This document shows positions 43,793 to 45,749 of a stretch of 64,000 bases of DNA, piece after piece. The position numbers were made by a program, and so were the translations under genes. This DNA is from Bdellovibrionales bacterium (GTDB taxonomy: Bacteria > Bdellovibrionota > Bdellovibrionia > Bdellovibrionales > JAUICD01): assembly GCA_965203275.1 (NCBI GenBank), contig OZ241865.1, forward strand, positions 2,432,001-2,496,000, in the 5' to 3' direction. Under the pieces are notes generated by a model that was not told the DNA's origin, did not search any database, and saw only the letters and a list, made by a program, of their open reading frames with translations. Position 1 is the first letter of the stretch. Every line of letters begins with the position of its first letter.

Positions 43793-45672
43793 ACTTGACT
43801 TTTTTTTAACTTTATAAGTCAGGAGATCATACTTTATTTATAAACTACAACTCCGGGGAGTGGCACAGTCTGGTAGCGTATCTGGTTTGGGACCAGAGGG
43901 CCACTTGACTTTTTTTAACTTTATAAGCGGGATATTCATACTTTATTTATAAATAAGTATTTGATAAAATAAACACAATGGTTAAAGTTAAAAAAAGTCG
44001 GTTTTTTATTACAGAGATCAATTAAATGATCCTCGAAAAATACAGTATCCATAATTTATATTTGGAGCGATTATATTGTTGTTATATTCACAACTCCGGG
44101 GAGTGGCGCAGTCTGGTAGCGTATCTGGTTTGGGACCAGAGGGCCACTTGACTTTTTTTAACTTTATAAGCGGGATATTCATACTTTATTTATAAACTAC
44201 GGGGACGGGGAGTGGCGCAGTCTGGTAGCGTATCTGGTTTGGGACCAGAGGGCCACTTGACTTTTTTTAACTTTATAAGCCAGAAGATCATACTTTATTT
44301 ATAAATAAATATTTGTTAAAATAAACACAATAGCATATCTTGTTTCCTTAACATGTAGTTAAGAGACGAGAGGATCCTCCTTACTAAAAGTAAACGGACT
44401 TTTGAGACATTGCTCTTTTTAGACAGCGTAAGCTGTCAGAGCAATGTCCAAAAGTAGCCAGAGGCTAGTTTACTTTTAGTGAAAAAAAAGACGGCTAGTT
44501 TATTTTTAGTGAAATAAAACCCTTAACATGGCGTTTATCTGGGATCCGGGATCTGGCAATCGGGCAAACTGGCATCAGGCAGGGATAAAGCGAACTTCTT
44601 GTTTCCTTAACATGGTGTTAAGAGACGAGGGGATCCTTTCTACTAAAAGTAAACGGACTTTTGAGGCATTGCTCTTTTTAGACAGCGTAAGCTGTCAGAG
44701 CAATGTCCAAAAGTAGCCAGAGGCTAGTTTACTTTTAGTGAAATAAAACCCCTAACATGGTGTTTATCCGGGATCCGGGATCCGGCAACCCGGCATCAGG
44801 CGGGGATAAAGCGAACTTCTTGTTTCCTTAACATGGTGTAAAGAAGCAAGGAGATCCGCCCTACTCAAAGTGAACAGGCTTTTGAGGCAATGACCATTTT
44901 GTCAAAGGCGTAAGAAAGTGAAATAAATAGCTTGTTTCCTTAACATGGTGTAAAAAGACGAAGAGATCCTCCTTACTAAAAGTAAACGGACTTTTGAGAC
45001 ATTGCTCTTTTTAGACAGCGTAAGCTGTCAGAGCAATGTCCAAAAGTAGCCAGAGGCTAGTTTACTTTTAGTGAAAAAAAAGTCGGTTTTTAATATAGAG
45101 AAAAATTAAATAATCCTCGAAAAATACAGCATCCATAATTTATATTTGGAGCGATTACATTGTTGTTATATTCACAGCTCCGGGGAGTGGCACAGTCTGG
45201 TAGCGTATCTGGTTTGGGACCAGAGGGCCACTTGACTTTTTTTAACTTTATAAGCGGGATATTCATACTTTATTTATAAATAAGTATTTGATAAAATAAA
45301 CACAATGGTTAAAGTTAAAAAAAGTCGGTTTTTTATTACAGAGATCAATTAAATGATCCTCGAAAAATACAGTATCCATAATTTATATTTGGAGCGATTA
45401 TATTGTTGTTATATTCACAACTCCGGGGAGTGGCGCAGTCTGGTAGCGTATCTGGTTTGGGACCAGAGGGCCACTTGACTTTTTTTTAACTTTATAAGCG
45501 GGATATTCATACTTTATTTATAAATAAATATTTGATAAAATAAACACAATGGTTAAAGTTAAAAAAAAGTCGGTTTTTAATATAGGAAGCAATTAAATAA
45601 TCCTCGAAAAATAAAACCTCAATAATCTATATTGAGGGTATTATTTTAAATCTATATTTACATATCCGGGGA
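43793..45672 (+). repeat. Tandem array containing five 47-nt 5' fragments of tRNA-Pro
   Basis: Fragments at 43854, 44097, 44206, 45181 and 45424, all ending ...GACCAGAGGG|CCACTTGACT-T-run; basic period 243 bp. Confidence 0.95.
44332..45073. repeat. Structured repeat cluster inserted in the tRNA-fragment array
   Basis: Three full family-1 units, one partial unit and GGATCC modules; replaces GGTTAAAGTT seen in sister units. Confidence 0.92.
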
Positions 45673-45749
45673 CGGGGAGTGGCGCAGTCTGGTAGCGTAT
45701 CTGGTTTGGGACCAGAGGGTCGCAGGTTCAAATCCTGTCTCCCCGACCA
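45673..45749 (+). tRNA. tRNA-Pro(TGG), intact
   Basis: Complete cloverleaf, loop TTTGGGA, GGTTCAAATCC, CCA. Confidence 0.96.

Follow-up and report, generated by a model that had tools for sequence, protein, structure and literature searches.

Islands that integrate at tRNA genes and displace a 5′ fragment of their target have been described (Zhao and Williams 2002, as cited in PMC6563490). In the Islander collection, 159 of 3,919 islands have such a fragment, which precedes the intact gene and points in the same direction; these islands are 2 to 200 kb long, and attP is ~250 bp (PMC4383910). On a much smaller scale, the TLRs of Escherichia coli comprise 1 to 5 short, noncoding units per tRNA locus, which lie downstream of the gene and each end in a piece of the tRNA, namely, 18 to 19 nt of its 3′ end; their function is unknown (PMC8144298). 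Two nuclease systems are relevant as well. SegB causes the tandem amplification of whole phage tRNA genes (PMC13096335), and Ssn nucleases, which are site specific, are tied to repeats marked by hairpins of ~30 nt, with tRNA going unmentioned in that paper (PMC11893778).

The DNA analyzed here is a 64,000-nt stretch (the window) of the genome of a Bdellovibrionales bacterium, which is assembled as a single contig of 2,567,810 bp (2.57 Mb) with 35% GC. The window contains an array of 5′ halves of tRNA-Pro(TGG) upstream of the intact gene, and a second array is present at tRNA-Pro(GGG). As in the Islander 5′-fragment islands, the fragments precede the intact gene in the same orientation and form a tandem array, and the unit has roughly the length of an attP; unlike those islands, the units carry neither an integrase nor cargo, measure only 109 to 975 bp, show the same layout at both isoacceptors, and have a long inverted repeat at the junction (PMC4383910). 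The arrays resemble the TLRs in consisting of a few short noncoding units that each end in a tRNA piece (here, five and two per locus) but differ in that the units are upstream and contain 47 nt of the 5′ end (PMC8144298). Tandem amplification at a tRNA gene is shared with SegB, although 5′ halves rather than whole genes are amplified here (PMC13096335). Hairpin-marked repeats are shared with Ssn, but no small GIY-YIG gene accompanies them (PMC11893778). A search of titles in the literature returned none on upstream, gene-less arrays of 5′-half cassettes at both tRNA-Pro genes.

RESULTS

The array at tRNA-Pro(TGG)

The preliminary description of this DNA had reported five 47-nt copies of the 5′ part of tRNA-Pro(TGG) upstream of the intact gene, at spacings of 243, 109, 975, 243, and 249 bp. 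All five are present with these spacings (Table 1). Copies 2, 3, and 5 match the gene at 47/47 positions, and copies 1 and 4 each differ from it by a single change, G12A. The common junction was likewise reproduced: every copy breaks after nt 47, which in plain counting corresponds to G46 in standard tRNA numbering, and continues with CCACTTGAC and a run of 7 to 8 T's. Of the acceptor stem, the fragments contain only nt 1 to 7. The first six bases of the tRNA are additionally duplicated just before the intact gene (45667-45672) and before fragment 3 (44200-44205). No open reading frame of ≥70 amino acids (aa) lies inside the array, and nothing but tRNAs scored over the Rfam thresholds. The flanking genes (43200-43790 and 45996-46502) had no Pfam match; the flanking 168-aa gene is kept in 5/5 relatives tested and the flanking 196-aa gene in 2/5.

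TABLE 1 Features of the two arrays, in window positions or, where so prefixed, on the contig (C1) of the window's own genome (G000)
Feature	Coordinates	Strand
Leftmost short body; begins directly 3′ of the stop codon of the upstream gene; inverted repeat represented by the left arm only (43797-43814)	43793..43853	+
Fragment 1, tRNA-Pro(TGG) nt 1-47 with G12A at 43865	43854..43900	+
Long body U1; junction CC; 17-bp inverted repeat 43907-43923 / 43983-43999; promoter-like site 44033-44062	43901..44096	+
Fragment 2, nt 1-47, identical to gene	44097..44143	+
Short body U2; left arm only (44150-44166), broken at the palindrome apex, as in the leftmost unit	44144..44205	+
Fragment 3, nt 1-47, identical to gene	44206..44252	+
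Long body U3, split by repeat cluster; left arm 44259-44275; promoter-like site 45117-45146	44253..45180	+
Cluster of abundant genome-wide ~150-nt repeat inside U3; not part of the cassette	44343..45076	+
Fragment 4, nt 1-47 with G12A at 45192	45181..45227	+
Long body U4, same sequence as U1; inverted repeat 45234-45250 / 45310-45326; promoter-like site 45360-45389	45228..45423	+
Fragment 5, nt 1-47, identical to gene	45424..45470	+
Long body U5, feeding the intact gene; 18-bp inverted repeat 45477-45494 / 45554-45571; promoter-like site 45604-45633; right half diverged	45471..45672	+
Intact tRNA-Pro(TGG), sole genomic copy	45673..45749	+
GGG array, two 47-nt 5′ halves before the gene	G000:C1:1870724-1871316	

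Each repeat is best read as a body followed by a fragment, that is, as a ~250-bp noncoding unit (243 to 258 bp across both arrays) with CC and an inverted repeat at its beginning and nt 1 to 47 of tRNA-Pro at its end. In the long TGG bodies, which measure 196 to 202 nt, CC is followed by a perfect 17- to 18-bp inverted repeat spanning 93 to 95 bp and then by ~100 AT-rich bases; each arm is one base longer in U5 than in the other TGG units. In the two short bodies, the sequence between the palindrome apex and a point immediately upstream of the fragment is missing. The 975-bp gap is occupied by an abundant modular hairpin repeat of ~150 nt with 921 BLAST matches genome-wide, 523 of them near full length. 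U1 and U4 are identical, and the other TGG units are mosaics that combine alleles also present in other units; this pattern suggests that recombination has taken place repeatedly within the array.

All four long TGG units have the same promoter-like site, a 9-of-12 match to the consensus located 35 to 40 nt before nt 1. The promoter scan overall was not significant (22 versus 13.7 ± 4.7). TTGACT is also a common promoter-like hexamer in this genome, which weakens the case for the TGACTTT ends of the inverted repeats described below as a mark of a cassette. Over the upstream 100 nt, different TGG units are separated by 8 to 22 substitutions, and the GGG units differ at 29 positions in ~195 nt, whereas differences between fragments and genes are confined to nt 12. 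At the flank rates, the probability of zero changes at 46 sites is 0.0006 to 0.03, the pairs being nonindependent. This conservation of the fragments fits function, and it fits equally well halves that worked until they were displaced or homogenization by recombination.

A second array at tRNA-Pro(GGG)

ARAGORN listed 38 genes in the genome, comprising one tmRNA, 35 real tRNAs, and two false calls; the latter, both labeled tRNA-Pro and located at C1:1721127, are short-period repeats and were dropped. When all tRNA genes were screened, two copies of nt 1 to 47 with a spacing of 258 were found upstream of tRNA-Pro(GGG), which lies behind valS at C1:1871240, and no 5′ fragments were found at the other 33 tRNA genes. 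The main new result is that the look for similar arrays at other tRNAs, as proposed in the preliminary description, uncovered a second array broken at the same base: the break follows nt 47 in both Pro genes, in five TGG and two GGG copies. An ordinary scar was seen at tRNA-Ser(TGA), in the form of a 31-nt 3′ fragment 140 nt downstream (G000:C1:837438-837468).

The layout of the units is also shared. The GGG body starts with CCCCA and contains an 11- to 12-bp inverted repeat that spans 97 bp and has the same outer ends as the TGG repeat. At the junctions of both arrays, CC is followed within 2 to 3 bases by TTGACTTT, and the inverted repeats of both span 93 to 97 bp between TGACTTT/AAAGTC ends. 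Perfect inverted repeats of ≥10 bp with GACTTT/AAAGTC ends and a span of 70 to 160 occur five times in 2.57 Mb, all within the two arrays; as a random background, 69 of 20,000 random positions are followed by any perfect repeat of ≥11 bp in this placement. The arm sequences differ between the arrays yet remain complementary. Outside the common motifs, the two bodies align no better than shuffled sequences (75 versus 59.8 ± 9.8). Sequence of the kind that follows the junctions is found before the first copy, too, in both arrays, and in the leftmost GGG unit the right arm is kept, with the end of valS standing in place of the left arm. The leftmost units accordingly look like truncated units and not like native upstream DNA.

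Assembly support

The TGG junction is carried by short-read contigs from three host samples (X1, X2, and X7), and read depth was compared between junction contigs and single-copy flanks. In X1, the TGG junction contig has a depth of 172.6 versus 41.5 to 48.8 for the flanks, with 92.2 for the duplicated unit body, and the GGG junction has a depth of 103.8 versus 57 to 61. The corresponding values in X2 are 54 versus 27 to 31 for the TGG unit body and 59.5 versus 25 to 35 for the GGG junction. X1 or X2 is possibly the source sample of the assembly. X7, which is from another host and another study, yielded a 143-nt TGG junction contig with 1 difference. Junction depths of about four times (TGG) and two times (GGG) single copy in X1, the matching contigs in X2 and, for TGG, X7, and the distinct alleles borne by the units make it scarcely credible that the arrays are an assembly artifact, even though the whole array is spanned by no contig examined from X1, X2, or X7, so that its order and exact copy number are taken from the assembly. 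The short-read contigs gave no informative joints for an empty site or an excised circle at either array. A close relative is present in X8, a sponge metagenome: two of its contigs, of 639 and 388 nt, each show 12 differences.

Predicted folds of the fragments

It had further been proposed that the truncated halves refold into closed mini-tRNAs by means of a new 7-bp closing stem. The complementarity exists, GAGTGGC (nt 5 to 11) pairing with GCCACTT (nt 47 to 53) with one G-U, but the mini-tRNA does not follow from it. G10 and C11 of the closing stem are also D-stem bases, and in the ensemble predicted for unmodified RNA the closing stem forms with a probability of 0.94 to 1.0, compared with 0.00 for the D-stem pairs and ≤0.02 for the anticodon-stem pairs. 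For the TGG fragment, the mini-tRNA fold has an energy of −12.2 kcal/mol versus −21.9 kcal/mol for the best fold. In the GGG array, the closing stem is impossible, and the U-run is absent as well. The closed mini-tRNA was rejected because both the D and the anticodon arms are lost in the predicted fold and because the stem cannot form in GGG. Such predictions are imperfect, given that the best fold of the intact TGG gene is a cloverleaf and that of the intact GGG gene is not. What remains at TGG is, as modeled, a terminator-like hairpin before a U-run, without a counterpart at GGG; 6 of 200 shuffles were equally stable. A 13-mer scan of both strands identified no separate gene for a tRNA-Pro 3′ half, and no tRNA-Pro 3′ fragment is present in the window's genome.

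DISCUSSION

Origin of the arrays

The arrays are real and are more structured than first seen. Most likely, they are a variant of tRNA-site integration debris and not a set of mini-tRNA genes. That two genes are broken at one base, with one junction layout, calls for a cause that is specific for both Pro and position. About an even chance can be given to the arrays being cargo-less cassettes that replaced the 5′ half of tRNA-Pro and were later shuffled by recombination. Such a cassette would enter the tRNA-Pro gene at a fixed site and supply a likely promoter together with a fresh 5′ half, whereas the old 5′ half would be pushed upstream to become a dead fragment; the fragments would then be recombination scars rather than tRNA mimics. 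An element in the 5′-replacing orientation would need to bring a promoter to the gene that it restores. At each gene, the first junction would have been made by a site-specific enzyme acting on two related cassettes, most simply an integrase that crosses over within or just 3′ of the anticodon arm. Based on integrase geometry at the anticodon, a block ending 8 nt beyond the anticodon loop would be the expected leftover of an anticodon-centered integrase. Homologous recombination between the repeats may subsequently have amplified, shortened, and homogenized the arrays. Amplification of a template-switch junction had been suggested at the outset; the amplification stands, as judged from the near-identical and mosaic units, but a one-off switch fails because the same break and the same inverted-repeat layout occur at two tRNA-Pro genes. 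The accompanying premise that integration scars usually duplicate 3′ ends and not 5′ halves was too strong in view of the 5′-fragment islands in Islander (PMC4383910).

The weak point of the cassette explanation is that neither an enzyme nor an autonomous partner was found; the enzyme may no longer be encoded here or may have gone unrecognized. The search for an integrase in the window's genome returned two tyrosine recombinases (PF00589), both distant, one Xer-like and the other a 187-aa catalytic domain, and no PF07508 serine integrase. There is no small GIY-YIG gene: the one PF01541 match lies in a 653-aa frame that is single copy in 5/5 genomes, and a motif scan of 6,774 frames gave no small candidate. 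Within the window's units, complementarity to the insertion site extends over at most 5 to 6 nt. Several other candidates were discarded. A look-alike of the right arm, present in 8 copies, is inside a transposase-like reading frame and was taken as chance. For CRISPR self-targeting, no other match of tRNA-Pro length was found, and three outside 13-mer matches look like chance. A multicopy small serine recombinase (14 matches) has TTGACTTT upstream but no link to tRNA-Pro. Of this recombinase (G000:C1:1034765-1035508 and 13 further matches), many copies are truncated by the abundant repeat, and several are located just after ankyrin-like genes.

Alternatively, and in our judgment rather unlikely, no mobile cassette was involved, and a nuclease cut or nicked tRNA-Pro DNA near the variable loop, followed by a template switch to upstream DNA and recombinational amplification; the nuclease could be SegB- or Ssn-like or belong to the machinery of the abundant hairpin repeat. 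The post-junction sequence in front of the first copy of each array is consistent with such a course, as is the fact that a pentamer within the fragment (nt 6 to 10 in TGG and nt 34 to 38 in GGG) recurs as its reverse complement in the first five bases of the adjoining junction. The TGG junction also resembles one end of the abundant repeat, and SegB provides a precedent for tandem amplification at tRNA genes (PMC13096335). However, break repair leaves the identical inverted-repeat layout at the two loci unexplained, the 46 nt that follow the GGG junction are unique in the genome, the CCAGAGG loop of the abundant repeat is missing from the GGG gene, and neither profile nor motif scan of the genome produced a small GIY-YIG gene. 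Functional small RNAs, an idea of the preliminary description taken up here in modified form, by which transcribed halves would serve as decoys or attenuators, possibly after trimming to the CCA after the break, appear quite improbable. The fragments are indeed more conserved than their flanks, CCA comes directly after the break in TGG and two bases later in GGG, and the stable hairpin predicted for the TGG fragment precedes the U-run. Moreover, the genome encodes a Cas12a-type RuvC gene, and Cas12a3 cleaves 3′ CCA tails, including those of truncated tRNAs (PMC12851939), while Septu cuts a tRNA variable loop (PMC13096335). On the other hand, the predicted fold displays no anticodon loop and buries the CCA in a stem, GGG has neither the closing stem nor the U-run, 3/7 fragments carry a change that breaks the D stem, one unit is broken up by the repeat cluster, and, among the genomes searched, the arrays were found in this lineage only. 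The Cas12a-type RuvC domain is part of a 996-aa frame (G000:C1:235358-236587).

A further explanation starts from the near absence of GCGC from this genome, which has 31 sites in 2.57 Mb versus ~900 expected (0.034). The tRNA-Pro genes and fragments account for six of the 31, and the 2/35 tRNA genes that have GCGC are the same two that have arrays (1 in 595 by chance). G12A, the sole change in any fragment, destroys GCGC and is carried by the leftmost fragment of each array. It is conceivable, if improbable, that the arrays are a retained, self-renewing repair stock: GCGC in the D stem would be lost at a very high rate but could not be purged from tRNA-Pro on account of EF-P, the hairpin cassette would keep spare copies of the promoter and 5′ half, and recombination with an unmutated half would restore a mutated gene. 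In E. coli, EF-P acts fully only with G/C pairs at 12/23 and 13/22 (PMC4890201). The genome has three C5 methyltransferase genes (C1:1734488, 2190636, and 2301306), and G001, a relative without such arrays, shows no GCGC depletion in the loci examined (66 kb; 41 seen versus 39 expected); the loci of G003 (19 kb) have 3 versus 10. Nevertheless, Pro identity and GCGC are fully confounded, a G12A change in the oldest copy is predicted just as well by neutral decay, GTGC and GCAC show no enrichment (0.75), a GCGC-methylating enzyme is putative, and a repair stock accounts for neither the inverted repeat nor the break at 47. A repair stock would be compatible with cassettes as well as with break repair. 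If the GCGC link is causal, the arrays would represent an unusual situation in which repeats are retained as a buffer for a single essential site that is hypermutable.

If the arrays are cargo-less cassettes, they provide a clean two-locus example of a gene-less, 5′-replacing tRNA cassette, a size class that island finders drop by design (<2 kb, no integrase). The second locus would offer natural covariation that defines the end of the element, along with a testable target site, and the arrays would caution against taking such tRNA halves for small RNA genes.

tRNA-Pro in related genomes

Similar arrays in related genomes, for which the preliminary description had asked, were not found. The 5′ junction was found in 0/350 other genomes of the phylum and only in the window's own, where the pattern recovers 7/7 junctions, and no true 5′ fragment was found in 383 other genomes of the order, many of these assemblies being broken at tRNAs. 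Searches for a half with a base other than T after it gave 2/384 order genomes for TGG and 1/384 for GGG; the one match beyond the window's own genome, in G069, is due to chance. A scan of the genome collection for the TGG 5′ half without the following T gave at least 119 loci with no true fragment among them; with G069 included, the 120 loci held 118 whole-tRNA matches, 3 cut by contig ends, and 1 chance match. Among the matches listed for 40 relatives, there is no internal 1-47 fragment. In metagenomes, 30/30 loci matching the junction 17-mer were dismissed as unrelated chance matches, and in viral contigs 21/21 loci are tRNA genes with a T arm, with 0 matches each to the left arm and the junction pattern. 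Comparison of the unit body with 20 relatives gave a best E value of 0.003 and nothing convincing. No empty site was recognized, as there is no synteny in G001 to G004 or G011; gene order is not kept around either locus.

Conversely, tRNA-Pro 3′ fragments that start at nt 46 to 51 are located downstream of the gene in four relatives (G001, G004, G017, and G027), which indicates that tRNA-Pro is an integration site in the family. In G001 and G004, the 3′ fragments are accompanied by 147- to 246-bp units downstream, a layout that matches that of the TLRs (PMC8144298). These observations mark tRNA-Pro as a frequently used target in the family, but the system of the relatives duplicates the opposite end. 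A repeat related to the abundant ~150-nt repeat forms units at the tRNA-Pro 3′ ends in the same two genomes.

A remnant adjoining the GGG 3′ fragment of G001 is the end of a large serine recombinase (L016:5306-5929), whose relatives are present in 157/384 order genomes and absent from the window's genome. At 23 of the 32 recombinase loci examined, ARAGORN identified a tRNA or tmRNA gene, mostly at the 3′ end of the recombinase. These 3′ ends abut the CCA of the tRNA or tmRNA, and GAACC, mirroring the T loop, is found ~16 nt beyond. The Islander report of 2015 states that serine recombinases are not known to target tRNA genes (PMC4383910). The tRNA-Pro 3′ fragments of G001 begin about where the 5′ fragments of the window end; in contrast to the window's units, however, the recombinases of the order duplicate the 3′ end downstream. 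With no gene in the window's genome and no GAACC motif at its junctions, this recombinase was rejected as the maker of the arrays.

The tRNA-Pro loci of G001 have additional features. The tRNA-Pro(GGG) locus (L016:5908-6094) consists of nt 1 to 30, a hairpin repeat, and nt 50 to 77 and so appears to be broken; an intact G001 tRNA-Pro(GGG) was not found with this query. Downstream of tRNA-Pro(TGG), a 147-bp unit (L004:5394-5509) contains two hairpins and a 12-nt exact complement to tRNA nt 45 to 56 that spans the start of its 3′ fragment. Finally, a 10.7-kb tRNA-Pro island (L004:5700-16430) encodes a restriction-modification fusion, SLATT, a TGT-like protein, 8-oxoguanine glycosylase, QueC, and TIR and looks like a defense island.
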